Virus record (IMG/VR): IMGVR_UViG_3300023296_001674
Origin: a virus
Strand: one strand, 5' to 3'
DNA length: 64,000 nt
In this document: positions 2,886-46,117 of the stretch, one piece after another
Layout: the number at the start of each line of letters is the position of its first letter
Numbering within the stretch: the stretch's first letter is position 1
Notes under the pieces: generated by a model
Told to the model about the DNA's origin: nothing
Database searches by the model: none
Seen by the model: the letters and a program-made list of their open reading frames with translations, nothing else
Made by a program: the position numbers and the translations under genes

Positions 2886-3672
2886 TATTATCAGTCCTAA
2901 TAAATTTCATTATTTTATTGTGTGTCGATATAATCATACTATTGTGTGGCAACATTAATTCAGTATATATTGTTCTATTATCAGTAAAATTAAATGTAAA
3001 CGAATAATATAATATTGATTTATCTATGCTATCCACTACAAAAAACTGATATTCAGTGCCGTGTGTAAACATATGATGATTGGTGTCGCGTTCAACCACT
3101 GTAGATATAGTTAATGATGACCCAATGTATGATATATCAATAATACTCTCATTGTTTATTTCACTTACTATATAATCCCCAATCAATGGAATCATCATAT
3201 AAAAATTTACATCATCGCCATATAACTGAATTAATTCCATTACTAATAACGAGTTATCGTCGTTGATTTTATAGTTTAACATATTTTTTGTGCCATTAAT
3301 GAATTCTGTTATCAATTCATCAACAATCACCAGTCCGCATTTTAATGTATCATCATCGTCTTGAATTTGTTGTTTTCTTGGTACAATACTACTTATGGTT
3401 TTTTCTTTGAAATGATAATACACATAGAATGTTTTTTTGATATTATATATTCCATCTTCATCATATAAAACGAATTTATTTTTTTTGATATTAGCGTTTC
3501 GTTTCCATAAATTGTAAAGTTTTATTACTTCGGGTGCTTTTGATGGCACAATCATGTACAATTCACACTGAAGCAAATAGTCGCACGGTTCCATACTTAT
3601 TTCATGTATAATTCTATTCTCGTCGGTATATACATATATTAAATCACTCATAATTATTCTCCAATATATCAA
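2878..3672 (-). CDS. Hypothetical protein (likely start at 3651)
   Basis: 264-aa ORF overlapping both neighbours in a coupled operon. Confidence 0.7.
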   Translation of the reverse strand: MIYWRIIMSDLIYVYTDENRIIHEISMEPCDYLLQCELYMIVPSKAPEVIKLYNLWKRNANIKKNKFVLYDEDGIYNIKKTFYVYYHFKEKTISSIVPRKQQIQDDDDTLKCGLVIVDELITEFINGTKNMLNYKINDDNSLLVMELIQLYGDDVNFYMMIPLIGDYIVSEINNESIIDISYIGSSLTISTVVERDTNHHMFTHGTEYQFFVVDSIDKSILYYSFTFNFTDNRTIYTELMLPHNSMIISTHNKIMKFIRTDNND

Positions 3673-4507
3673 TCATTCCATCTTTCAAAAACTTTTTGAC
3701 ATGATAATGAAATATTCCAGTTTGTCGTAATGTACCAATTTTAATACCAAGAGAATCATTAAATTCGTCAAATGATATATCGACACATCTCGTCCAATCG
3801 CCATCAAAACTTTTGCTTGGTAGAACCCAATTCATATTTTGTAATTTCATATGTGTAAAATAAGGAAAAGACACTTCGTTGAATATTGCATCGTTTTTCA
3901 TGCCAATCAATTTCAACGAAAGACCAAACGCCACATCAGTACTGAATACTTTAGGGCGTTTTTTATATAAATGTTTTTTGACATAATCGTCCCAATTTTC
4001 GCATATATCTTTCATTGTATCGAACAGTTCTTTGTTATCTTCGTGTTTTTTAAAATAGAAAAATGCATTATACACATTCGGTAGTTTATTTTTTATAAAT
4101 TCTTCACGATAAATTGTATGTGGCGGCACAATTTCACTTTTGTAATTTTTAATGGTTGATGTGAACCAAGTGTTTCTAAGTGACATATAATCCCACCAAT
4201 GACTAATATCTGTTAAAAATAGCATATCACTATCTAACATAACTGTTTCATCATATGGAGTATAATCATATAAGTCTACAATATTATGCAATTTCCAATC
4301 TGCATCTTTGGCGCGATCATTGTCCATTATTATAATTTGGTCAAATGCTTTGATATAGTGATTTGGTATATATTCAATATCAGTGACAATAGACAATTTA
4401 TTGACTCCGCTTTGGGTATTTTTTATACTCAACGCCAACGCATAAGCAAGTCTCAAATAATCAACATCTGGTGTATTTTGAACTATACATATATATCCTT
4501 TATTCAT
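3644..4507 (-). CDS. GT8-like glycosyltransferase
   Basis: TPYDETVMLDSDMLF (DxD), AYALALSIK, STDVAF, FTHMK. Confidence 0.75.
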   Translation of the reverse strand: MNKGYICIVQNTPDVDYLRLAYALALSIKNTQSGVNKLSIVTDIEYIPNHYIKAFDQIIIMDNDRAKDADWKLHNIVDLYDYTPYDETVMLDSDMLFLTDISHWWDYMSLRNTWFTSTIKNYKSEIVPPHTIYREEFIKNKLPNVYNAFFYFKKHEDNKELFDTMKDICENWDDYVKKHLYKKRPKVFSTDVAFGLSLKLIGMKNDAIFNEVSFPYFTHMKLQNMNWVLPSKSFDGDWTRCVDISFDEFNDSLGIKIGTLRQTGIFHYHVKKFLKDGMIDILENNYE

Positions 4508-5427
4508 GAATATATCTCCACGAATGTATCATAATGATGTGTCATACTTACTTTATTCATACAATGCAATGATATATTCTCAACATTGAAAAGTTGTTTT
4601 GGATTCTTCCATTGATGTGTGTGTATCATTAATTTTATTTGTTGTTTATCCACCCTATATACAACATCATTATTAGTTGAGAGAACAAATTTAAATGGTA
4701 TTTCCCATTCAGTTGATGGGATATGATTTCCATTAGCGATATATAATGCAATGCTGAATGAATAATCATTTCTATATGAATTATCACTAACTTGATATAA
4801 TCGTTGAAAATAAAAATAATTTTCTTTAATATGATTAACCACATCAAAATAATTTTTACTAAACTCACTTCTGTCAAAATATACAACCGTAGCCCAATAC
4901 ATCGGAATAGAAAAACTTCCCATTTTTTCTGTTGGATGAAAGTGTGTGTTTTTAGAGTGCGCTTTGTTAATAATAGGAATAATTATTCTATTCATCATAA
5001 TCGATGAATTCGAACCCCAAAGTTTGTCAAGATTTTTATCTTGAAAAATAAAATCCACATCGATCATGATTGTTTCATCATATATAGAATCTGTATATGC
5101 ATTAGAGCGCGAGTGATTAATCCACGTATTTGTTCCGTAGTATATTTCACCATCAGTCGTTTTTCTATAATTTTTTATTTTCTGCTTTACGTCATCAACT
5201 TTTACAAGATCGAATAACTCATTGAGCAATGCAGTTTCATTATCATTCAATGACGCCAATGATTCACTATTGGTAACTACCATTGCGTTAAATTTTGATA
5301 ATTGATATCTACCAGTTAATGCGCTACTTATTGCCAGTTTTAAATAGTTTATAATTTCATTATTATATGCGTAATATAAAAATCCGCATGTTTTTTCATT
5401 AGATTTCAACATCATCTTCCAATTCAT
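4504..5427 (-). CDS. GT8-like glycosyltransferase, paralog of the downstream gene
   Basis: SIYDETIMIDVDFIF (DxD), YWATVVYF, RNDYSFSIA, LHCMNK. Confidence 0.72.
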   Translation of the reverse strand: MNWKMMLKSNEKTCGFLYYAYNNEIINYLKLAISSALTGRYQLSKFNAMVVTNSESLASLNDNETALLNELFDLVKVDDVKQKIKNYRKTTDGEIYYGTNTWINHSRSNAYTDSIYDETIMIDVDFIFQDKNLDKLWGSNSSIMMNRIIIPIINKAHSKNTHFHPTEKMGSFSIPMYWATVVYFDRSEFSKNYFDVVNHIKENYFYFQRLYQVSDNSYRNDYSFSIALYIANGNHIPSTEWEIPFKFVLSTNNDVVYRVDKQQIKLMIHTHQWKNPKQLFNVENISLHCMNKVSMTHHYDTFVEIYS

Positions 5428-5838: not shown

Positions 5839-6750
5839 TTAATTTCCATTTGATAAACTTATATTTGTAGTATATGTAGGGGAATCTATATCAAAAGATA
5901 ATGCATATTTACTTTCAACTATTGAGCTAGTAAATGTCCCGTCAACTATGTCTGGTGGATTTGTATGCCCATCTAAAAAATTGGATTGTATTTTAATTTC
6001 TAATCCATTGCCGCCATTTGGTCCTTCTATTCCAACGCGTTGACCTAAAATAGTCCACACGCTTCCAGTAGAACCACCGGTACTACCATATGGTCCACTT
6101 AATGGTGTTATTTGTGATCTCACCAATTCTAACGAGCCGGTTAATGCATAATATTCATCACGACCAAATATTAAATCATTGCCATCAACAACTGAATCCC
6201 ATGCAGCATTTTGTGTATTAACCGCGCCGCCAGTTCTTGTAGTTGCTATACGAAATGTGCTTCCTGTATTAAAGAAATATCGTGCATGATCAACGCTTGT
6301 GAATTTTATTGTAAACACATGCTGTATATATGTACTCCAATCCAAAACTCTTGAATCAGTCAATACCGAACTTGTCGACGGTAAATTAAATGTTGGATCA
6401 GTAAGGAACCGATTTGTAGTAATATCAAACAAATTTTGTGAAGAATTTAATTTTAGAAAGAATGAAGCAACGTCGCCATCTTCCATATCTGCAACTGATG
6501 GCAAAACATCCATCAATGTAGTTCCTTGGTGATCAGCGCAATCCTCGATTGCGTTCCTCAAATTAATCCACGCTTCATTAGTCAATCCACCTCCAGGTAT
6601 TATATCTGGTATGTTACCATCAATTAATACATTAGTGGAATTTCCACCATATCCATAATCACCATTGCCAATACCAAATATTAAATTTAATTCATTAATT
6701 AAATTATTATAATCAGATGCTTCGATTTCACCACCAGTAGAATAAACCAT
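5839..6750 (-). CDS. Virion structural (fibre/baseplate-associated) protein, paralog family 1/4
   Basis: N module YNxLIxxxNxxxGxGxGxxGYGG...W..L..A..DC..HQ; C domain ARYFFNTG..R.GG...QN..W...DGTFTS. Confidence 0.7.
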   Translation of the reverse strand: MVYSTGGEIEASDYNNLINELNLIFGIGNGDYGYGGNSTNVLIDGNIPDIIPGGGLTNEAWINLRNAIEDCADHQGTTLMDVLPSVADMEDGDVASFFLKLNSSQNLFDITTNRFLTDPTFNLPSTSSVLTDSRVLDWSTYIQHVFTIKFTSVDHARYFFNTGSTFRIATTRTGGAVNTQNAAWDSVVDGNDLIFGRDEYYALTGSLELVRSQITPLSGPYGSTGGSTGSVWTILGQRVGIEGPNGGNGLEIKIQSNFLDGHTNPPDIVDGTFTSSIVESKYALSFDIDSPTYTTNISLSNGN

Positions 6751-35278: not shown

Positions 35279-36307
35279 ATGACAGATCAACTCTTTAAAA
35301 AAGTTGCTTGTTTCACCGATATTCATCTAGGACTTAAAGGCGACTCTGATCAACATCTAGAGGATTGCGCCAATTTTATAACATGGTTCATAGATAAAGC
35401 AAAAGAAAATAATGCAGAAACTTGTATATTTCTTGGTGATTGGCATGACACACGGGCAAAAACAAGCAATAAAACAATGAATGCCAGTTTGAAGAATATC
35501 GAACGACTTGCGGCGGCATTTGATAATTTTTACTTTATAACTGGTAATCATGATTTATTTTATCGTGATAATCGTGAAATAAACTCAGTGGAATTTAGCA
35601 AACTAATCGACAATGTAACAATTATATCTGAACCATTTTTACAGGGTGATGTTTCTATAATGCCTTGGCTTAACGGCGAAGAATGGAAAGATGTTAAAAA
35701 AATAAAAAGCAAATATATGTTTGGGCATTTTGAATTACCTGGCTTTCTCATGAATGCGATGGTAAGAATGCCCGATTCCGGTAATATACATGGTGATCAT
35801 TTCAAACACCAAGATTATGTGTTTAGTGGTCATTTCCATAAAAGACAAAATCAAGGAAAGATTCATTATATAGGTAACACATTTCCACATAATTTTTCAG
35901 ATATAAATGATGACGAACGTGGTATGATGCTCCTCGAATGGGGCGGAAAACCAGAATTTTTAGAATGGTCAGAAGCACCTAATTATAGAAAACTCACATT
36001 AACGCAATTACTTGAAGAACCAGAAAAATGGATTGATAACCGTTCATATGTTAGGGTTGAAATGGATGTAACACCCACATTCGAAGAAATTGTGTACATT
36101 AAAGAAGAAATTAACAATGAATTTAATCCTCGTGAATTGAGTTTAATTTCATTAGCGAATGATGAAGTATTATTAGATTTCGATGGCGATATAAACTTTG
36201 AATCCGTTGATGCGGTTGTCCTTACGCATATTGATGCAATTGATAGTGTTAACATAGATTCTGATTTTCTTAAAACAATTTATATGGGTCTAAACGATGC
36301 AGAATAA
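35279..36307 (+). CDS. gp47: Recombination endonuclease subunit (Mre11/SbcD-like)
   Basis: DIH, GD, GNHD, GHF and SGHFH metallophosphoesterase motifs. Confidence 0.93.
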   Translation: MTDQLFKKVACFTDIHLGLKGDSDQHLEDCANFITWFIDKAKENNAETCIFLGDWHDTRAKTSNKTMNASLKNIERLAAAFDNFYFITGNHDLFYRDNREINSVEFSKLIDNVTIISEPFLQGDVSIMPWLNGEEWKDVKKIKSKYMFGHFELPGFLMNAMVRMPDSGNIHGDHFKHQDYVFSGHFHKRQNQGKIHYIGNTFPHNFSDINDDERGMMLLEWGGKPEFLEWSEAPNYRKLTLTQLLEEPEKWIDNRSYVRVEMDVTPTFEEIVYIKEEINNEFNPRELSLISLANDEVLLDFDGDINFESVDAVVLTHIDAIDSVNIDSDFLKTIYMGLNDAE

Positions 36308-36832: not shown

Positions 36833-38809
36833 ATGCTAAAAATTAAAAATATTACAATAAAAAACTTCATGTCGGTGGGTTCTGTTACTAAATCCATTAC
36901 ACTTGATGAAAATGATTTAACACTGATTTTAGGTGATAACATCGATCAAGGGTCAGATGGAAGTAGAAACGGTGTTGGAAAGTCTGTTATAGTGGATGCA
37001 TTATCGTATGCATTATATAATGCGCCAGTTCGTAGAATATCATTACCAAAACTTATTAACAAAATTAATGACAAAAATATGATTGTTACGGTTGATTTTG
37101 AAAGAGATGACCAACAATACAGAATAGAACGTGGTAAAAAACCAGAAATATTCAAATTTTTTGTTAATGGTATAGATATTGAAAAACCAATCGACAAAAA
37201 AGATAAAGCGGAAGGCGAGAAAAAGAATACACAAGTGGAAATAGTGAAAATCTTTGGTATGTCGCACTTATTATTCAAGCATATTCTTGCATTGTATAGC
37301 AAAACTATTCCATTCATAGATGAAGGATCAGCAGTTCAACGAACAATTATCGAAGAATTATTGGGTATAACGCAATTAAGTGAAAAAGCGGCTATTTTAA
37401 GTAGCAACATGAAAGATACAAAAACTGAAATAGACCGTGAAGAATTTAGACATAAACTTGTAAATGATTCAAATATACAAATACAACAAAACATCAATCA
37501 ATTTACAATCAAATCAACCGGATGGGATACTACCCATGCAGAAAGTTTAGCTAAATTTGAAAAAAATCTAGAAAAAATGCTTGAAATTGATATAGATGTA
37601 GAAATTCAAAAACATCTTGATAATGAAGAACGACAAAATAAAATCAAAACTATAACTGAATCCAATCGTGATAAACAATTGGTTATAGATGAACAAAATC
37701 GTGATATACAAAAAAAGCATGATGACAATAAACGCGAACAAACCGATCTACATAGCCAAATGACGCGTGACTATAACGAAGTTGTGGGTATATTATCAAC
37801 GACTGAAAAGACGCTTGTTGATATTACATCCTCTGAAAAAACACTTATATCTAATAATGAGCATCTTGTAAAACATGCATGTCCAGAATGTGGTCAAGAT
37901 ATACATGACGACAAACACGATGATATGGTTAAGAAAAACGAAAACGAAATCGAACTTATATCATCTAAAAAAGACGTATGTGTAAATGATATAACTGCGA
38001 TAAAATCGATTATAGTAGAAAAAGAAACATTAGTTCGAGAACAATTGGCATTAATTGATGGCATAACTGCGCCAGTTCTAATGGAAAACGACGAGATGGA
38101 ACCGGTGCCGGTATTAGAACGACCTAACTTAAATTATGATACAATACACGAAGCATATGAACATAAAACTAATTTTGATAATTTGGTGACCACATATGAA
38201 AAAGAAGTAACCAATGAAAATCCATATATTGAACAAATCCAAACTATAACTGATAGCATTAAAGAAATCGATTACGAAATGATTAATGAATTGGTTAATT
38301 TATATAATCATCAAGATTTTCTATTAAAATTGCTAACTCGCAAAGATTCTAATATAAGAATACAGATAATAGAACAAAATTTGACATTCTTGAATAGTCG
38401 GCTTGATCATTATTGCAAAGAACTTGGTTTACCACATCAAGTATATTTCGGCGGAGACTTGAATGTTGATATTATAAAAACTGGTAATTCATATGATGCT
38501 GGTAATTTATCTGGTGGTGAAGTAACCAGATTGGTGTTGGCTTTCAGTTTTGCGTTCAGAGATGTACACGAAGCTTTAAATTTTCCAGTAAATATTATGT
38601 TCGTGGATGAATTAATAGATTCTGGAATGGATTCAAAAGGTGCGGAACTGGCATTGCATATTTTAAAAAATATATCAAGAAATAATAATAAAAATATATA
38701 CTTGATAAGCCATCGTGAAGATTTTATACCACGTGTATCCAATGTTCTTATGGTTACTTTCAACAATAATTTCACTGATTATAATTACGAAATAGACGTT
38801 CAGCCTTAA
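36833..38809 (+). CDS. gp46: Recombination ATPase (Rad50/SbcC-like)
   Basis: NGVGKS Walker A, CPEC zinc hook, LSGGE signature, FVDE Walker B, ISH. Confidence 0.94.
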   Translation: MLKIKNITIKNFMSVGSVTKSITLDENDLTLILGDNIDQGSDGSRNGVGKSVIVDALSYALYNAPVRRISLPKLINKINDKNMIVTVDFERDDQQYRIERGKKPEIFKFFVNGIDIEKPIDKKDKAEGEKKNTQVEIVKIFGMSHLLFKHILALYSKTIPFIDEGSAVQRTIIEELLGITQLSEKAAILSSNMKDTKTEIDREEFRHKLVNDSNIQIQQNINQFTIKSTGWDTTHAESLAKFEKNLEKMLEIDIDVEIQKHLDNEERQNKIKTITESNRDKQLVIDEQNRDIQKKHDDNKREQTDLHSQMTRDYNEVVGILSTTEKTLVDITSSEKTLISNNEHLVKHACPECGQDIHDDKHDDMVKKNENEIELISSKKDVCVNDITAIKSIIVEKETLVREQLALIDGITAPVLMENDEMEPVPVLERPNLNYDTIHEAYEHKTNFDNLVTTYEKEVTNENPYIEQIQTITDSIKEIDYEMINELVNLYNHQDFLLKLLTRKDSNIRIQIIEQNLTFLNSRLDHYCKELGLPHQVYFGGDLNVDIIKTGNSYDAGNLSGGEVTRLVLAFSFAFRDVHEALNFPVNIMFVDELIDSGMDSKGAELALHILKNISRNNNKNIYLISHREDFIPRVSNVLMVTFNNNFTDYNYEIDVQP

Positions 38810-38837
38810 TTAATAAAACAAATATATAGGATTAAAT

Positions 38838-39242
38838 ATGGTAAGTGGTAGAAAATCAACAAAAGAAGAAATTATAATTTTATTCGAAAGTATACATGGA
38901 AACAAATATGATTATTCAAAAATTGATTATATAGGATCACATAATAAAATAGAAATTATTTGTAAAAAACATGGTTCATTTTTACAAAGCCCTAATAATC
39001 ATTCACATGGTAGCGGATGTCCAACCTGTGGGGCGACTAAAACTTTTGATAATTTTTTAAAAGATGCTAGAAATAAACACGGTAATAAGTATGACTATTC
39101 TAAAGTTGTATATATCAATGCACACACAAAAGTGGAAATAATATGCCCAAAACATGGATCATTTTTTCAAATACCAAATAGTCATATAAGATATGATTGT
39201 ATCAAATGCGGTCATGATAAAAATAGAAAAAATGATAAATAG
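38838..39242 (+). CDS. DUF723-type zinc-binding repeat protein (homing endonuclease DNA-binding module with no nuclease domain)
   Basis: Two HGNKYDYSK..Y...K.EIIC.KHG.F.Q.P..H...C..C repeats. Confidence 0.8.
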   Translation: MVSGRKSTKEEIIILFESIHGNKYDYSKIDYIGSHNKIEIICKKHGSFLQSPNNHSHGSGCPTCGATKTFDNFLKDARNKHGNKYDYSKVVYINAHTKVEIICPKHGSFFQIPNSHIRYDCIKCGHDKNRKNDK

Positions 39243-39272
39243 ATATAGCAACTGCTTATAAGGATAATTATT

Positions 39273-40130
39273 ATGTCTGATAACATATATTATGTCTATG
39301 CATTAATAGACCCAAGAAACAATAAACCATTTTATATCGGTAAAGGGAAAGAAAAAAGATGTTTCACGCATCTATCTGAAAATAAAGAACGCACCGATAA
39401 TATATATAAATGGAACACTATTCAAAAAATATATAAATTGGGGTTAGAACCAACTATTAAATTTTTTGAACGTGATATAAGCGAAAATGATGCTTATGAT
39501 ATCGAGGAAGAATTAATTAAACATTATGGACGGAAAAGATTTGATAAAAATGGAATTTTAACAAATTTATGTTTGGGTGCTCGACCTCCAGTTAACAATA
39601 GAGGATGTGTGGCGATATCTGGTTTATCATTTGATGAATATTATGGAAAAGAAAAAGCAGATAAAATAAGAAAGAAAATGAGTGATAGCGTAAAAGGTGA
39701 GAAAAACAGATTTTATGGAAAAACACATACAATAACAAATAAATTAAAATTCGCAACGAATGCAAGCAAACAATGGAAAGGAGTGTCAAAAACAGAAAGT
39801 CATTTAAAAAATTTAAAAAAAACTTATACACCAAAACGCCGAGAAAAATTACGTCAAAATCGCATCATAATGAATAAAAAATTAAACACTCCTGAAATGA
39901 TAGATAAATTACGATTGCGCAATATTAACCATGGTCGTGAAAAAACCAAACAAACAATTATCAACAATTTAATATTTTATCAAAATACAATCAATGATTT
40001 AAATAATGGATTAACCCCGAAAGATATAAAACATAAAAATAATTTTTCACATTCTGTATATTCTAAAATCTGGATGATAAATAAAAATATAACCTATTAT
40101 AATGATTTAATAGATGAAATAAATGGATGA
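39273..40130 (+). mobile_element. Free-standing GIY-YIG homing endonuclease with NUMOD3-like motif
   Basis: YVYALIDPRNNKPFYIGKG..R...H, E..LI..YGR, LTN; KGEKNRFYGKTH. Confidence 0.85.
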
Positions 40131-40135
40131 AATAA

Positions 40136-40750
40136 ATGGCTGGAAGTAAATCTGCAAGATATGGAAAGAATTTTGAGTATGAGGTGCGTGATCTATTACG
40201 TGATGCAACCGGAATTACATCTTTTGAACGAACGCCACAATCGGGCGCATGGATTGGAAAATCCAATATATATAAAGCAAAAACTGCTCGTGCTGATATG
40301 GTTGACATAATGGCTGGCGATATTGTAACTCCTAAAGGATGGAGATGGGTGATAGAAAATAAAAATCATGAAGACATAAGTGTCCATCAACTATATTTCG
40401 GCGAAGAATGTAAACAAATAGACGAATTCTTAGGACAAATATGCGATGATGCCATAACTACCAATAAAGAACCGCTATTAATATTTAAATTAAGGAAGAA
40501 ACCATATTCATTTAAGAAAAAATTTACAGATTTATTAAAATCAGCAAAAATACCAACACCTAAAGTAAATTCAATAACAACTGGTATCATGGTAGCCGAA
40601 ATAGCCGAACATTGTGAGGATATATCAAAAATAAACCATATATTCTATACAAAAAAATTAGAAGATGGAACTGAACAATCATGGAGATTTTTCGATTTTG
40701 CTACATGGTTAACGGTAATAAAAGATAGACAATTCAAAGAACAAAAATAA
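40136..40750 (+). CDS. Holliday junction resolvase-like PD-(D/E)xK nuclease
   Basis: GKNFEYEV, RTPQSGA, GDIV.P, IENK, PLLIFK. Confidence 0.75.
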   Translation: MAGSKSARYGKNFEYEVRDLLRDATGITSFERTPQSGAWIGKSNIYKAKTARADMVDIMAGDIVTPKGWRWVIENKNHEDISVHQLYFGEECKQIDEFLGQICDDAITTNKEPLLIFKLRKKPYSFKKKFTDLLKSAKIPTPKVNSITTGIMVAEIAEHCEDISKINHIFYTKKLEDGTEQSWRFFDFATWLTVIKDRQFKEQK

Positions 40751-40752
40751 TA

Positions 40753-40781
40753 TTGACAAGTATTACAATATTATATATTAT
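40753..40781 (+). promoter_or_regulatory. Sigma70-type promoter
   Basis: TTGACA-N17-TATTAT directly upstream of the ORF at 40806. Confidence 0.7.
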
Positions 40782-40805
40782 AAACAAAATTAACAAGGTC
40801 ATTAA

Positions 40806-41666
40806 ATGTCACCACAACCAAAATATAATCACTTAAAAGAAATGTCAAGCCGTGGCATTGATAGAAAGCAACAAAAACAAAAAAACTATGCAAACCATAG
40901 AGATATTCTACCAACACCGCCGCAGAAAAATGCATTAAAAAGTTTATTTGTGGAAGAAATGAAATTTTATAACAATTTCATTAAATTAATGCAACCGAGA
41001 TTAAAGACATCACCATCATTTTATGAAAATATAGGTGAAAGACAAAAATTGTTATTTGTTAAATTGGCGCAGATTGGTTTTAATGTGCGAGATATAACAA
41101 ATAGAAAAAGCAAAAACGTTGTATTACCTAAATCATTAGAACAATATCGCGATATATTATTTGGTATAACCGGTGATAAAGAAGTGGGATTAAATGAAAC
41201 ACTTGCGGTATTCTACGAAATATGTAAACATCGGGCCATTGTGTTATCAGACACCCGAAAAAATATGGCATATGAATTTTTAAATTTTTATATCAAACAA
41301 ACTAGATCGCATGATAATATGTACACACTTGAAGAAGTTGATAAAATGCAAAAACGGCATATACAATTAGCTAAATCGCAAGTAACGATGTCATTGGTTC
41401 GTACCGCAACTGAATTCGGAGATGAAACTCACACTGAGATAAAAATCCCACAGTTGAAAACACCATTGATCATGGATGCAGATTATAATGACTTACAATC
41501 ATGGAATATCATGATTATACATAAAGACCCATCGCAACTCGATTTAGGAAATACAAACCTTAATTGGGAAGTTGATTTTAGACAAACAGAAGACAAATAC
41601 TTACTCAAATACGTAGAAACGCCTAACCCAATTGCTAAGATGAATAGCAGATTTATAAAGAAATAA
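40806..41666 (+). CDS. Putative TnpB-derived protein retaining REC/WED-like regions and lacking RuvC
   Basis: ILPTPPQKNALKSLF...KFYN resembles the IS605 OrfB HTH; IKIPQL and WNIMIIHK...WEVDF resemble WED strands; the ORF ends before any RuvC motif. Confidence 0.45.
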   Translation: MSPQPKYNHLKEMSSRGIDRKQQKQKNYANHRDILPTPPQKNALKSLFVEEMKFYNNFIKLMQPRLKTSPSFYENIGERQKLLFVKLAQIGFNVRDITNRKSKNVVLPKSLEQYRDILFGITGDKEVGLNETLAVFYEICKHRAIVLSDTRKNMAYEFLNFYIKQTRSHDNMYTLEEVDKMQKRHIQLAKSQVTMSLVRTATEFGDETHTEIKIPQLKTPLIMDADYNDLQSWNIMIIHKDPSQLDLGNTNLNWEVDFRQTEDKYLLKYVETPNPIAKMNSRFIKK

Positions 41667-41759
41667 TTAACTAACACATATACAAATACATATACAAACA
41701 TCATAGATGAACAATAATCTAATACATATACTAACACAGAACCCTTACACATACATGCT

Positions 41760-42405
41760 ATAATAAACTACCGACGGGATATAGACCGTGGTTATGAATC
41801 CTGATGTATGAGGATGATCTGGAATAGAATGACTGATGGTGATGATAATCAAGACGCCATGATGTGTTATGAAGCAATGAAACGCACGCACTCTCCCAAT
41901 GGAGCAGCTACCAGCCAGAATAAACAAAGAGGGGCTTTGACTGATGGTTAAAGTAGAACAAGAAGGATGCGCTGTCTGAGCTATTGACATCATCCAGCTT
42001 ATATCAATACGTTCAGGTCATTTATCGGCGTGATATAAGTACCGAATCCAACAGGACTATGGGAACTAAAGATGGTAAAGGGATTCCGCCATGCGCTTTA
42101 TGCGTTTCCAGTGAATGACTAGAAGCTCACTTATACTATGTGCAAACAACTTATAAATGATTAGACTAAATCCTTCCATTATAACTCTTTTCTAAGTGTT
42201 ATAAAGGGGGGATAAAAGTCTAATTAACAGTGCAATATAAGAATTGAACTACGTTCAACTAAGTGTAACATAGCTTATTATTGTAGACCTATCATAATAT
42301 ACCATAATAATGATAAGAACATAATGTTAAAGATGTAAAGGCTTTATGAATGAACGTAGTGAAATGAATAAAGACGAACATCAGAAAGACGTAGTCTTTC
42401 TCTAA
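41760..42405 (+). ncRNA. Putative large structured non-coding RNA (alternatively an origin)
   Basis: No credible ORF; several long stems, with G-U wobbles compatible only with the + strand (42060-42110, 42158-42226). Confidence 0.55.
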
Positions 42406-42416
42406 ACATAAGTAAA

Positions 42417-42635
42417 TTATATTATAGGAAGTCCTGTCTTTTCTGTTGTCTCAATATTACTTTTTATTTTCTTGGTAATTGTTTCTCTGTGTGATGCGGT
42501 AAGTCGCCATGCTTGATCCCATGATATCGATCCTCTCATGTACCAACATATGTCCGTCACTTCTTTTTCTAAGGCTCTTGCTTCAAATGAAAGATCGATC
42601 ATAAAATCGCGTATTTCATCTGGAGACGAATTCAA
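42417..42635 (-). CDS. Tail/baseplate assembly chaperone C-terminal segment, probably made by -1 frameshift
   Basis: WYMRGSISWDQAW motif; only a weak TTG start; in the -1 frame of the upstream gene. Confidence 0.65.
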   Translation of the reverse strand: MNSSPDEIRDFMIDLSFEARALEKEVTDICWYMRGSISWDQAWRLTASHRETITKKIKSNIETTEKTGLPII

Positions 42636-43480
42636 GAGCTTTGTTCGAAAAAATGCGATGGATCGAAGTTAACTGATGTTTTCCATTCATGTTGACAATT
42701 ATCACAATCAATTTCCATTTCTTTTGGAATGCCTACTTCATTAAGTTTTTTGATGGCTTCTTCTATTTGTTTTGTATCGTTTCTACTTGTTTTACTTAAA
42801 AACTCGCTTATGAAATCTTGATTGTCTGTAACTAACTTGCCTTCTCTATGAACACTGGTAATACTCAATGATAGCAATTCCATTGTTAAATCTACTGCTT
42901 TTTTATAACTACCTGCTGCTTTTGCTGCTTTTTCTTCATCGGATAAATCTTCAGACATTAACATTTGTAAGAATTTTCCTTCATTAAATGCCAATAATGC
43001 AGCCTTAACAGATGATGTATAAGTATATGGTTTTATTTTTATAACTAAACCATTTTCTAATTTAACTTGTGCATTCGGTTCTAATTTGTCTGCATTAGAT
43101 AGCAACCATGAAATATCTAAACCGAATTCTTTTTCTGTTTGACATTCTGGACATTCTGATGAGTAATCAATTTGGATGCCATAAGTGGCTTGTCGTATAG
43201 CCAATAATAATACTTCAATGTCATTCATTGGTAAATCTCGAACATTTGTAATACCGGGTGCGCAACTTTGTATAACTCTTGCGACTGATTCACCGTTAAG
43301 TAATGCATCAGGGCTTTTAAATAATAATTCATCTGCCGTAGTCATTGGATATACTTCTATTTCGCCATCTACCGATGTGATGATATCACCCTTTTCGCTA
43401 TAAAAACCACATGATGGCAGGGGTACATATATAGGAGTTCCTCTAAAAAATTCAGATAGTGGATTTTGTTCATTAACCAT
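42632..43480 (-). CDS. gp26: Baseplate hub assembly/tail chaperone (gp26-like)
   Basis: LPS.G, PMTTADELL, LAIR.ATYG, CPEC...CDNC, C-terminal HFF. Confidence 0.75.
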   Translation of the reverse strand: MVNEQNPLSEFFRGTPIYVPLPSCGFYSEKGDIITSVDGEIEVYPMTTADELLFKSPDALLNGESVARVIQSCAPGITNVRDLPMNDIEVLLLAIRQATYGIQIDYSSECPECQTEKEFGLDISWLLSNADKLEPNAQVKLENGLVIKIKPYTYTSSVKAALLAFNEGKFLQMLMSEDLSDEEKAAKAAGSYKKAVDLTMELLSLSITSVHREGKLVTDNQDFISEFLSKTSRNDTKQIEEAIKKLNEVGIPKEMEIDCDNCQHEWKTSVNFDPSHFFEQSS

Positions 43481-43548
43481 GGATTTTATTCCTCAAATAA
43501 ATAATAATGTAATAGTTTTGGGATTTAGTCAAAATACTTAACCAAAAC

Positions 43549-43568
43549 TATTTATATAACTATTTATA
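43549..43568 (-). promoter_or_regulatory. Two T4-type late promoter boxes
   Basis: TATTTATA at 43549 and 43561 (TATAAATA on the minus strand) upstream of the gp26-like gene. Confidence 0.65.
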
Positions 43569-43582
43569 ACAGGTTTTAACAC

Positions 43583-46117
43583 ATGGCAACAGATAATCCA
43601 TTATTAGGCGGCGGCGATGATTCTTTTAACGATTGGGCTTCAGAAACTACTCAAAAAGAATTAAAAAAAATTCTTGAAGGTAAACTTAAAAATTACGACG
43701 CTAAGAAAATTGAAGAGTTATTAAAGAAGATCGAACTGAATACTCGTGCACTTAAAGGTAAAGGCGCGAGTGGTACTGGTGGTGCTAGTGGAATTGATTT
43801 CACTAAGGTAGTTAAGAATATAAATTTATCAGGCGGTTCTAGTGCTTCGGGTGGTGCTGGTCCATCTATTGCTAAAATAGTAGAAGATGCTACCAATTCT
43901 CCTTCACGAACAGGTGGTGCTGGCGGTGGCGGTGGCCCAATTATAAACAATGATGAAATAAAAAACGCAAAAGAAGAAGAAACTGAAGCAGTTAAAAAAT
44001 CTACTGGAGGTTTTTGGGATTTATCCAAATCTGTAAGTGCGTCCACAATAGGATTGATTAGTTTTACTGCTGTAGCCGGTGCATTGGGTGCATATATAGG
44101 AAACTCAATTGATGGTTATAGAGAACTTATTAATGCAGGTAGCAATTTTAATAGTTCATTGTTAGAAATGAGAAAAGCATCAGCAGATGCTGGCATGGGG
44201 TTTGACACTTTTGTTAAGGTATTAACAAAAAACAGTCAAGTTGTTAAAATGGTTGGCACAGGAGAATTTTTATCATTACAAAAAAGAATTCGACGCGTGG
44301 GTGATGATTTTGGGCAGTTTGGATTAACAGTTGAAGGAACCAGTGATTTTCTATCTGATTACTTAGAAACAAATATTCGTTTGGGTAATAGGCAGAAAAT
44401 AGATGAGACGTCAAGGGCGATAGGGTTTAGATCATATATGAATGAATTGACATCATTATCGAAAGCTACTGGTATACAACGTGAAGAATTGGCTAAAAAT
44501 GCCAAAGGTGTTGCAGATAACTCTAATATTCGCACAGCGATGAATAGAATGTCTAAATCAGAACGTGAAGAATTTAGTAAGACAATGGAAACTATGGGTT
44601 TAAAAATGGCAGCATTTGGTGATCCTATGAAAGAATTGATGGCTGATGCAGTTGGATCATTTATGTCTACTGGTAATATAGGTTTATCAGATTTGGGTAA
44701 AATCGCGGCAGTTGCCAGCGGTGAAACCGCCAATGCGATGACGTCTATGGTGAAAAGAATACAAGGTGGCGGCGATGATGCAAATTTGGCATTAGCAGAC
44801 TTAGCGAAATTAATGAGAGGAACCGATTTTCTTAATGCAGTAGGTGCAATGGAAGTGGCTAATAATTCAGCGGCTCTAGCAGTTAGTGCAGCCGCAGGAA
44901 AATGGATGCATAGTTCAGACACACAAGCTTCCGCTATACTTGACGCAACGCGAATGACGAGAGAACAAACTGATGCGATAGCAAGAAAAGAAGCCATCGA
45001 GTCGGCTGGTTCAAAGGCGCTATTAAACGTTCAATCCAATATGGGTAAAGCGTTTGGAACAATGCAATTTGCTATATTAAATGGTCTCACGCCTGCTATA
45101 ACAGGCGCTGGTGTTATATTTTCTGATATGATGGATGTTATCATGGGCGCATTTACTAAAGATCGAATGGATAGTATTGTATCAACGTTGGGTGATGCGT
45201 TTAAAACAGTTCAGAGTTGGGGTGATAAATTCGCATTATGGATAGGTGAAGGTGGTATTGAACGTAGTATTAAAAATATAATAGGATTTACGCAGTCTTT
45301 GGGTGAATCGATGATGTTTTTGGCTGATAATATAGATGTTATAATTGCTGGTACAGCCACTCTTGCGGTGATATTTGCTGGATTAAAGATAATCGGTATA
45401 GCTCTTGCACTCGGCGGCGCGGCGATAGCAGGCCCAGTGGCGCTAGTTGTTGGTGGTGTTATCGCGTTGGGTGGTGCTATTGCATTAGTGGTTGCATATT
45501 CAGAAGAATTAGGTGGATTTATTTCAAGATTTGGTGAGAATATGTGGAATAGTGTTAGACTTGGACTAACAACGTGGCCGATTGGTAGTTTATTAATGGA
45601 TTCGATTAATAGCATGTTTGATACTAATTTTGATTTTGGTGGATATGTAGAAAGTGTATTATATAAATTAACGGGTGGCATTTTTGGTAAAGACGCACCT
45701 AAGCCAGGATTTTCATTTGGCGATGATGTTGGTAGTGTCGCCGTTGGTGTTAATGATAATAAATCACCTGAAGATATAAAGAAAGATCGCGTAACTATAG
45801 CAAGAGAACGATCATTTAAAGAGATAAAAGCTATTCCTGATTTAAACCATAATCAATTATCAAGAGCAAGGCGCGGAACGAATTTATCTACTGATGATTT
45901 GAAGGCTGATATGGCTGATGATGGAGTACTTACACCACAAAATAGAAAAATAATAGAAGAGAAAGCTAATAGTGGTGAAAAGTATGCCAAGTTGTTATTA
46001 GAGCAAATGACTAGAGCGAATGATTTAGCAGAGCAAGCGCAACAAGCACGCGAAGAACAAATAAAACAGACAAAAAAACGTCAACCTAGCTTTGGAATGG
46101 CTAGTTCTGGAACATAA
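43583..46117 (+). CDS. Tape measure-like protein
   Basis: 844 aa, Ala/Gly-rich and helical with hydrophobic segments; next to the tail chaperone. Confidence 0.7.
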   Translation: MATDNPLLGGGDDSFNDWASETTQKELKKILEGKLKNYDAKKIEELLKKIELNTRALKGKGASGTGGASGIDFTKVVKNINLSGGSSASGGAGPSIAKIVEDATNSPSRTGGAGGGGGPIINNDEIKNAKEEETEAVKKSTGGFWDLSKSVSASTIGLISFTAVAGALGAYIGNSIDGYRELINAGSNFNSSLLEMRKASADAGMGFDTFVKVLTKNSQVVKMVGTGEFLSLQKRIRRVGDDFGQFGLTVEGTSDFLSDYLETNIRLGNRQKIDETSRAIGFRSYMNELTSLSKATGIQREELAKNAKGVADNSNIRTAMNRMSKSEREEFSKTMETMGLKMAAFGDPMKELMADAVGSFMSTGNIGLSDLGKIAAVASGETANAMTSMVKRIQGGGDDANLALADLAKLMRGTDFLNAVGAMEVANNSAALAVSAAAGKWMHSSDTQASAILDATRMTREQTDAIARKEAIESAGSKALLNVQSNMGKAFGTMQFAILNGLTPAITGAGVIFSDMMDVIMGAFTKDRMDSIVSTLGDAFKTVQSWGDKFALWIGEGGIERSIKNIIGFTQSLGESMMFLADNIDVIIAGTATLAVIFAGLKIIGIALALGGAAIAGPVALVVGGVIALGGAIALVVAYSEELGGFISRFGENMWNSVRLGLTTWPIGSLLMDSINSMFDTNFDFGGYVESVLYKLTGGIFGKDAPKPGFSFGDDVGSVAVGVNDNKSPEDIKKDRVTIARERSFKEIKAIPDLNHNQLSRARRGTNLSTDDLKADMADDGVLTPQNRKIIEEKANSGEKYAKLLLEQMTRANDLAEQAQQAREEQIKQTKKRQPSFGMASSGT

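Follow-up and report, generated by a model that had tools for sequence, protein, structure and literature searches.

The window analysed here is a 64,000-nt stretch of a viral record (IMG/VR IMGVR_UViG_3300023296_001674), and our subject is one gene in it together with the RNA that appears to follow it. The gene codes for a protein of 286 aa resembling the N-terminal half of the nuclease TnpB, called half-TnpB in what follows, and it is succeeded on the same strand by some 750 nt free of genes. A sequence-only reading of the window had proposed that this pair is a domesticated, nuclease-free descendant of TnpB with a large structured RNA as its partner. The gene and the parts of its product are as follows.

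40753-40781, + strand: sigma-70-type early promoter-like site, TTGACA-N17-TATTAT, a putative promoter and the best consensus match of the region (11/12)
40806-41666, + strand: half-TnpB gene (open reading frame, ORF, of 286 aa)
Protein residues 1-29: basic N-terminal tail, modelled with low confidence
Protein residues 30-34: WED strand beta1
Protein residues 38-167: helical REC insert
Protein residues 185-259: the remaining six WED strands
Protein residues 275-284: C-terminal helix

The ORF and the promoter-like site both lie where the sequence-only reading had placed them, and seven related loci, among them L014, L015, L017 and L001 to L003, retain a ATATTGACA -35 region in front of their copy of the gene. 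Because of this conservation, the half-TnpB gene seems to have a real early-type promoter and to be under separate control.

Neither Pfam nor PHROGs gave a match for the window protein, and its kinship is seen mainly in its predicted fold. An AlphaFold 2 model built from 137 sequences (predicted local distance difference test, pLDDT, 91.2; predicted template modelling score 0.85) was compared by VIA-align with 48,161 representatives of the PDB, and the best 33 matches were all Cas12, TnpB, TranC or Fanzor chains, with Z scores from 10.4 to 3.5, the first unrelated chain following at Z 3.4. The best match was AsCas12f (8dzj_A, Z 10.4, 163 residues, root-mean-square deviation 3.8), followed by dCas12f (Z 10.1) and by ISDra2 TnpB (8h1j_A) and Fanzor2, both at Z 9.8; these matches cover the N-terminal WED and REC domains of the Cas12, TnpB and Fanzor chains. 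The check with AlphaFold and Foldseek that the sequence-only reading had called for likewise ranks TnpB/Cas12 chains first, with probabilities of up to 0.99 (Cas12n and TnpB 8ex9_A), E values of only 5e-3 to 0.1 and a high global deviation in the alignments. An earlier AlphaFold model from 10 sequences (pLDDT 70.5) had only Cas12f, TnpB, Cas12n and Cas12k as its top matches. The ESM Atlas was uninformative for this protein, its own model having a pLDDT of 0.39.

The fold also shows where the protein ends. Residues 25-260 of the model align with residues 2-173 of ISDra2 TnpB over 163 residues. In ISDra2 TnpB, WED comprises residues 1-12 and 117-176, REC (13-116) sits as an insert between beta1 and beta2, and RuvC starts at residue 185 (PMC10097598). 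The model follows the same course, from beta1 through a helical insert to a beta-barrel, as in TnpB (PMC10097598), and the phage protein stops about 25 residues after its last WED strand. The earlier proposals that the protein follows the TnpB N-terminal half in order, and that it terminates where RuvC-I would begin, thus hold at the level of the fold. REC is whole and even enlarged, at about 130 aa versus 104 in TnpB. Judged by this model, the protein is only the recognition lobe of a TnpB/Cas12-type enzyme, a WED oligonucleotide/oligosaccharide-binding (OB) barrel with a helical REC insert, and RuvC and TNB are absent altogether, not merely inactivated.

The missing half was not found elsewhere in the record either. 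The window is part of a 194,073-bp IMG/VR record, about 51% complete by the CheckV estimate, in which the RuvC core (PF01385), the TNB or zinc-ribbon domain (PF07282) and the Y1 transposase TnpA (PF01797) had no match, the positive controls being matched each time; for TNB there are also no residues left in the protein. The absence of tnpA noted from the sequence therefore extends to the whole record, and any transposon context is lacking: there is no TnpA family, the gene is syntenic and the RNA is single-copy.

Ten relatives of the window protein came from a word-indexed search, and an exhaustive profile search extended the family to at least 166 clusters at 50% identity, 118 of them with E < 1e-10. 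All 150 clusters listed of the 166 have proteins of at most 345 aa, so no longer form with a nuclease half exists among them. At the level of sequence the support is weaker: the best PDB match of the 137-sequence profile was Fanzor1, in the N-terminal region (E 0.0019), and PF12323, the N-terminal domain of IS605 OrfB, was matched by 2 of the 137 members (best E 5.7e-4), the N-terminal strand and the E..YN..L helix motif of the family resembling that domain. With tblastn, the window protein and the distant member P0100 found nothing in 50,697 GenBank phages, and the family profile had no match in T4, P-SSM2, HTVC008M, Atu_ph07 or PA5oct at the sensitivity available. Across a broad family of giant T4-like phages the half-TnpB gene is single-copy and syntenic, and it evolves under purifying selection.

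Downstream of the gene the features are these.

41666-41736: three copies of a 23-nt AT-rich ACATATAC-type repeat, after the stop codon
41667-41764, + strand: AT-rich spacer between gene and RNA
41756-41764, + strand: extended -10-like TGCTATAAT just upstream of the RNA, a putative promoter element
41765-42405, + strand: structured RNA of about 640 nt, its ends approximate
41765-41966, + strand: RNA 5' core domain
about 41774-41789: hairpin H1 of the 5' core, of the form CCGG-GAnnnAGA-CCGG
about 41797-41815: hairpin H2 of the 5' core, with three different stems in three lineages
41818-41822 with 41915-41919: long-range helix H3 (CUGG/CCAG), closing a variable insert
41915-41929: conserved single-stranded motif CCAGAAUAAACAAAG, with the invariant strand CCAG(A/U)AUAAACAAAG after H3
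about 41934-41953: hairpin H4 of the 5' core
41996-42128, + strand: RNA central domain, with a pseudoknot
42129-42405, + strand: RNA 3' domain, with a long hairpin
42206-42223: conserved GGGGGGAUAAAAGUCUAA in the 3' domain
within the 3' domain: conserved UUUAUGAAUGAACG..GUGAA block, kept relative to L014 and L015
42384-42400: terminal hairpin with a GNA triloop, its stem different in all four lineages and still paired

That the 750 nt after the gene (41667-42416) hold no credible ORF was confirmed. No ORF of the + strand exceeds 47 aa, no reassignment of stop codons yields a long frame, and substitutions relative to L014 have no three-base periodicity (59, 59 and 57 over the codon phases), which together rule out a hidden coding region or recoded stops. 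In L017 a gene called for 163 aa (6042-6533, minus strand) overlaps the RNA on the opposite strand; its frame is not kept in other lineages and the call is for this reason probably spurious.

The claim of a large structured RNA also stood, by comparison more than by energy. The folding energy of the gap is only modestly unusual (z -2.3 on the + and -1.7 on the - strand), and since thermodynamics alone is unimpressive the case for structure rests on related sequences. Over 514 nt the gap has 67.5% identity to that of L014 (E 1e-53), with proteins 43% identical, and it aligns with L015 and L016 across its centre and with L017 across its 5' third and 3' end. The consensus fold of the window and L014 is more stable on the + strand than on the - strand (-88.8 vs -65.2 kcal/mol), and among its 111 predicted pairs 18 have compensatory changes, 14 one-sided changes and 1 is broken. 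With RNAalifold, compensatory changes were found in 15/44 pairs for the window, L014 and L017, in 10/22 pairs of the 5' core when L015 was added, and in 6/44 pairs of a third sub-alignment. The two most conserved segments, CAGGUCAUUUAU and the downstream GUGAAUGACU, lie in the central domain and pair in a long-range helix, while a hairpin, CUUAUAUCA/UGAUAUAAG, that covaries in three lineages encloses CAGGUCAUUUAU in its loop, the two together making a pseudoknot; in L015 the pseudoknot helix has double compensatory changes, UCA/UGA to CUG/AGC. Covariance model R1 scored 131-141 bits in the window, L014, L015 and L016 only, and found a single copy in the 194-kb record. The body is modular, as L017 keeps both ends around an unrelated middle. 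On this comparative evidence, an RNA of about 640 nt, conserved, covarying and with a predicted pseudoknot, is present in four related lineages: the window, L014, L015/L016 and L017.

This RNA does not belong to any family that we searched. Rfam had no match at E up to 1 on 38000-45000, only chance-level snoRNA matches (E 3-8) on 41650-42430 and nothing on the homologous RNA bodies in L014, L015 and L017; the weak Rfam matches to small RNAs that L015 and L017 do have lie over the terminator-like stretch preceding the RNA. A search with ARAGORN revealed neither tRNA nor tmRNA. Short resemblances by eye to conserved regions of RNase P were rejected, as their order differs and no RNase P model scores. 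Pattern scans for CCAACAGGACUANGG in IMG/VR and GTDB genomes gave chance matches only, and a scan for CCAGCCAGNAUAAACAAA gave three, also by chance. A sub-threshold match resembling tRNA-Sec (34 bits, E 0.003, gathering score 47) was seen in L015 at 3338-3422 on the minus strand, between a QueC-like gene and PDDEXK_15.

There is no terminator-like site in 40000-43700 of the window and hence none between gene and RNA, and the RNA could be transcribed either as a 3' extension of the gene or from its own promoter. The triple ACATATAC-type repeat may possibly be a protein-binding or promoter-upstream element, and the terminal triloop hairpin may also end the convergent gp51/gp26 transcript.

The sequence-only reading had asked whether ORF and RNA co-occur in related phages, and the answer is divided. 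The RNA is present in all four sequenced lineages of the window's clade, and in the locus of the closest homologue, P0002 (66% identity), about 700 nt at the same place are free of genes. More distant is a second group of IMG/VR loci, L264, L265 and L267, with proteins only 24-26% identical to that of the window. Downstream of the gene, L265 and L267 have about 970 nt free of ORFs; the two sequences are 74% identical, lack codon periodicity and have 24 compensatory pairs, and L264 shares their first 260 nt or so. The 5' core of these three has the same order of parts, namely an H1-type hairpin, GAACUGG, an insert, an identical 15-mer CCAGUAUAAACAAAG and a covarying hairpin, and the motif CCAGnAUAAACAAA lies 127-360 nt past the stop codon in the window, L014, L017, L264, L265 and L267. 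Model R2, built from the window's clade only, had its three best matches in 34 kb of L263-L267 just 3' of the gene on the + strand, each weak alone (E 0.2-0.45).

A third clade, L254 and L011 (proteins 37% identical), has a different conserved RNA of about 340 nt right after the stop codon and on the same strand. Between L254:4825-5205 and L011:1825-2205 identity is 69% (E 6.5e-40); 21 pairs are compensatory and none is broken, and the + strand is favoured, with 30 G-U pairs versus 9 on the - strand. By eye, CUGGAAUAG...CCAGC in this RNA resembles helix H3 of the window RNA, though the two RNAs are not connected by the covariance models.

Other loci have features of their own at this place. 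After the family member of L263, a 296-kb IMG/VR contig, there is an ORF-free stretch of 1,282 nt with a G+C-rich core (3877-5158), and it holds none of the motifs of the window RNA. In L001:4594-4871, L002:2102-2380 and L003:5874-6152 a terminator and a TTGACA...TATACT promoter follow the gene, and the ORF of 97-98 aa that comes next has a leader of about 130 nt in which CCAG occurs eight times; the motif AAGUUUnnAUCCACAACAUUUAUU stands after the terminator in this clade and is also found in L015 and L017. Among cultured relatives that have no half-TnpB gene, PA5oct and Atu_ph07, neither RNA model matches at the syntenic place, where PA5oct has an unannotated gap of about 660 nt between PDDEXK_15 and gp26 (76517-77179; L262:4306-4968) that neither R1 nor R2 matches.

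The gene order around the half-TnpB gene is T4-like, with the following neighbours.

35279-36307: gp47-like Metallophos gene, then a gene for an AAA_28 protein
36833-38809: gene for a gp46-like protein
38838-39242: homing-endonuclease-type gene for a treble-clef/DUF4379 repeat protein
39273-40130: GIY-YIG/NUMOD3 homing-endonuclease-type gene
40136-40750: PDDEXK_15 nuclease gene, directly upstream of the half-TnpB gene
42417-42635, - strand: gp51-like ORF, convergent to the half-TnpB gene
42632-43480, - strand: gp26 baseplate hub gene
beyond gp26: genes for an 844-aa protein, the gp20 portal, the prohead protease and the gp23 capsid protein

The portals closest to that of the window are those of the jumbo phages Atu_ph07, Phosso and PA5oct (45-48% identity), and an identical copy of the half-TnpB protein lies on a contig of 570,750 bp. 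The uncultured phage carrying the gene is probably a megaphage, and its IMG/VR label of provirus may be wrong. The two homing-endonuclease-type genes (38838-40130) stand between gp46 and PDDEXK_15; since the 66%-identical relative has neither, the pair appears to be a recent mobile insertion. Where the flank is long enough, the half-TnpB gene in most loci lies between PDDEXK_15 and the convergent gp51/gp26 genes, at the end of a gp47/gp46/PDDEXK_15 recombination module, and PDDEXK_15 is directly upstream or one to two genes off in every such locus; the PDDEXK_15/half-TnpB/gp26 arrangement was not seen in L266. PA5oct has gp46, PDDEXK_15, gp26 and the portal in the same order without the half-TnpB gene, and the adjacency of PDDEXK_15 is therefore backbone synteny and not evidence of partnership.

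What might a recognition lobe without a nuclease do? In TnpB the cleft between WED and REC binds the duplex of the transposon-associated motif (TAM) and WED binds stem 4 of the omega-RNA, while WED and RuvC together bind its pseudoknot, and REC and RuvC form the heteroduplex channel (PMC10097598). The phage protein keeps the first of these surfaces, the TAM-duplex cleft, whole and the two shared with RuvC by half. Going by the roles of WED and REC in TnpB, the retained surfaces could bind an RNA and a DNA duplex simultaneously, and without RuvC such a particle could bind but not cut. The reading that we favour, at about even chances, is that of a TnpB-derived ribonucleoprotein free of nuclease, a non-cutting binder of nucleic acid with the neighbouring RNA as its partner; the two would probably work together. 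Early in infection, the protein made from its own promoter would join the RNA as a nuclease-free nucleic-acid binder, and the particle would most likely regulate or block sites on host or phage DNA, with the RNA serving as a programmable guide or as a scaffold or cargo held by the protein. RNA-guided recognition of DNA in the strict sense is a tentative part of this and on present evidence a doubtful one. Of the earlier proposal of an RNA-guided binder or scaffold, the nuclease-free lobe and the conserved downstream RNA have held up, whereas no guide or target match appeared in the 194 kb.

Several observations weigh against the favoured reading. At 640-970 nt the RNA is far above the size of known omega-RNAs, and it is RuvC, missing here, by which TnpB grips most of its RNA scaffold (PMC10097598). 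In neither orientation does any RNA segment of at least 15 nt recur in the rest of the 194 kb. No such RNA adjoins the gene in the clades L001-L008, L009/L010, L013 and L266, even though the RNA-less L002 protein is closer to that of the window (35%) than the L265 protein is: a terminator, a new promoter and small ORFs come after the gene in L001-L008, a terminator and then gp51 in L009/L010, and L013 and L266 lack a gap there. R1 and R2 find nothing in the loci of these clades, nor do they link the L254/L011 RNA to that of the window. A terminator-like hairpin stands after the gene and before the RNA in L015 and L017, which may mean that the RNA is transcribed separately. The site is moreover a junction between the early module and the convergent late module where accessory DNA collects, such as homing endonucleases in the window and cassettes of small ORFs in L001.

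With respect to guides, the search of the phage genome suggested by the sequence-only reading came out negative. The RNA shares 2 14-mers with the rest of the 194 kb, as against 3.2 in shuffles, and with no longer match a self-targeting guide is ruled out within that record. A CRISPR array was likewise rejected, as 40700-42700 has no repeat-spacer array, only the AT-rich 23-nt triple repeat.

The alternative that survives best, though we consider it unlikely, is that the two are independent neighbours: the protein would bind DNA by itself through the WED-REC cleft, as a factor for early transcription, replication or recombination, and an unrelated phage non-coding RNA would happen to occupy the room left between the early module and the baseplate genes that converge on it. 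The clades that keep the gene without the RNA, the terminator-like hairpins of L015 and L017, the nature of the locus as an insertion hot spot and the position of the gene at the end of the recombination module all speak for it, as does the fact that TnpB reads its TAM duplex with WED and REC alone. However, the same RNA core stands just 3' of the gene and on the same strand across proteins of about 25% identity, a third clade (L254/L011) has another structured RNA at exactly that position, and the gene-less PA5oct and Atu_ph07 have no match to R1 or R2 at the syntenic place.

Rather improbable in our view is a reversal of roles, with the RNA as the active agent (a ribozyme, or a decoy or sponge, for example against an RNA-guided or RNA-sensing defence of the host) and the protein as a chaperone that folds, protects or localises it and targets no DNA. 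Its size, multi-domain build, pseudoknot and conserved single-stranded motifs are typical of RNAs with a tertiary fold of their own, its middle is swapped in L017 with both ends kept, and no guide or target match was found in the 194 kb. Against this, Rfam recognised no catalytic or known motif, and REC, which lines the DNA-binding channel in TnpB, is whole and even enlarged.

A split nuclease, in which the recognition lobe recruits a separate enzyme (PDDEXK_15 or gp46/gp47) to DNA sites specified by the RNA or by a motif, is very unlikely; the nearness of PDDEXK_15 in every locus with enough flank would invite it, but that adjacency persists in PA5oct without the half-TnpB gene, the orientation of PDDEXK_15 relative to the half-TnpB gene varies among loci, and PHROGs groups the PDDEXK_15 protein with Holliday-junction resolvases. 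Least credible of all is that an OB-barrel with a helical insert reached this arrangement by convergence without kinship to TnpB, since the modest sequence and Foldseek E values, the high global deviation and the silence of Pfam and PHROGs are set against 33 consecutive best structural matches from one superfamily (Z falling from 3.5 to 3.4 where unrelated chains begin), an identical topology, an end point at the WED/RuvC boundary and an N-terminal strand and E..YN..L helix motif that resemble PF12323.

Returning to the nuclease-free ribonucleoprotein, we would go further only speculatively. It is conceivable, though we would not expect it, that this is a third and more radical domestication of TnpB, in which a lytic giant phage would build a programmable, non-cutting particle that binds DNA or RNA out of the recognition lobe of TnpB alone and a very large modular RNA; the conserved 5' core and 3' end would be the scaffold that binds the protein, and the replaceable middle body, different in L017, in L265/L267 and in L254/L011, would set specificity.

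A widespread and conserved family made of the recognition lobe alone means that half of TnpB can evolve as an independent protein. If the protein works with the large RNA, the pair would be a new architecture for RNA-protein targeting on a very small chassis (~250-300 aa) and would point to an early function of giant T4-like phages not known before. The RNA alone is a new family of large pseudoknotted phage RNAs with covariation support.

To our knowledge, all described derivatives of TnpB and Cas12, including the nuclease-dead TldR, Cas12k, Cas12m and dCas12f-sigma, retain the RuvC lobe, a part that binds much of the guide RNA as well. Full-text literature searches covering papers on TnpB, Fanzor, TldR and dCas12f-sigma found no family of WED and REC without RuvC, nor this RNA, and the accessible part of the TnpB census of Altae-Tran et al. 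describes exapted TnpBs with inactivated catalytic sites and none without the domain.

Four kinds of known system come nearest to the pair. Large, ornate phage-associated RNAs of several pseudoknotted domains are familiar from GOLLD and ROOL, and the window RNA is like them in its several hundred nucleotides, its domains and its pseudoknot; it differs in having a fixed protein-coding neighbour and no Rfam match at E up to 1-10. Cas12f and the exapted dCas12f-sigma (PDB 8DZJ, 9N9C; PMC12259090) are the best structural matches, at Z 10.4 and 10.1 over about 160 N-terminal residues of WED and REC, but the window locus has no CRISPR array or tracrRNA-like repeat, half-TnpB has no RuvC lobe and no recognised zinc-finger insert, and no sigma factor is seen beside its gene.

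With ISDra2 TnpB (PDB 8H1J, 8EXA, 8EX9; PMC10097598) the phage protein shares the REC domain inserted between WED beta1 and beta2 and the N-terminal strand with the YN helix motif, and in both cases a structured RNA is encoded on the gene's own strand, at its 3' end or beyond it. Unlike TnpB, the phage protein is without RuvC, TNB and C-terminal domain, and its gene is without a transposon (no TnpA, single copy, fixed synteny). The RNAs also differ, that of the phages being 640-970 nt long versus about 150-250 nt for omega-RNA, with no visible overlap with the ORF, behind a terminator in some relatives and with no 3' guide found in the 194-kb search.

TldRs retain a decayed RuvC, having lost only the active site and the C-terminal zinc-finger/RuvC segment (10.1101/2023.11.30.569447). 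They belong to temperate phages and have short guide RNAs with identifiable targets, whereas here the whole nuclease lobe is gone and the carrier looks like a T4-like giant phage (provirus by IMG/VR class). There is a likeness to TldR (10.1101/2023.11.30.569447) all the same, for both would be domesticated, non-mobile, phage-borne derivatives of TnpB that are free of nuclease activity and have a non-coding RNA next to them, and by this analogy it is plausible that half-TnpB, too, binds DNA without cutting it.

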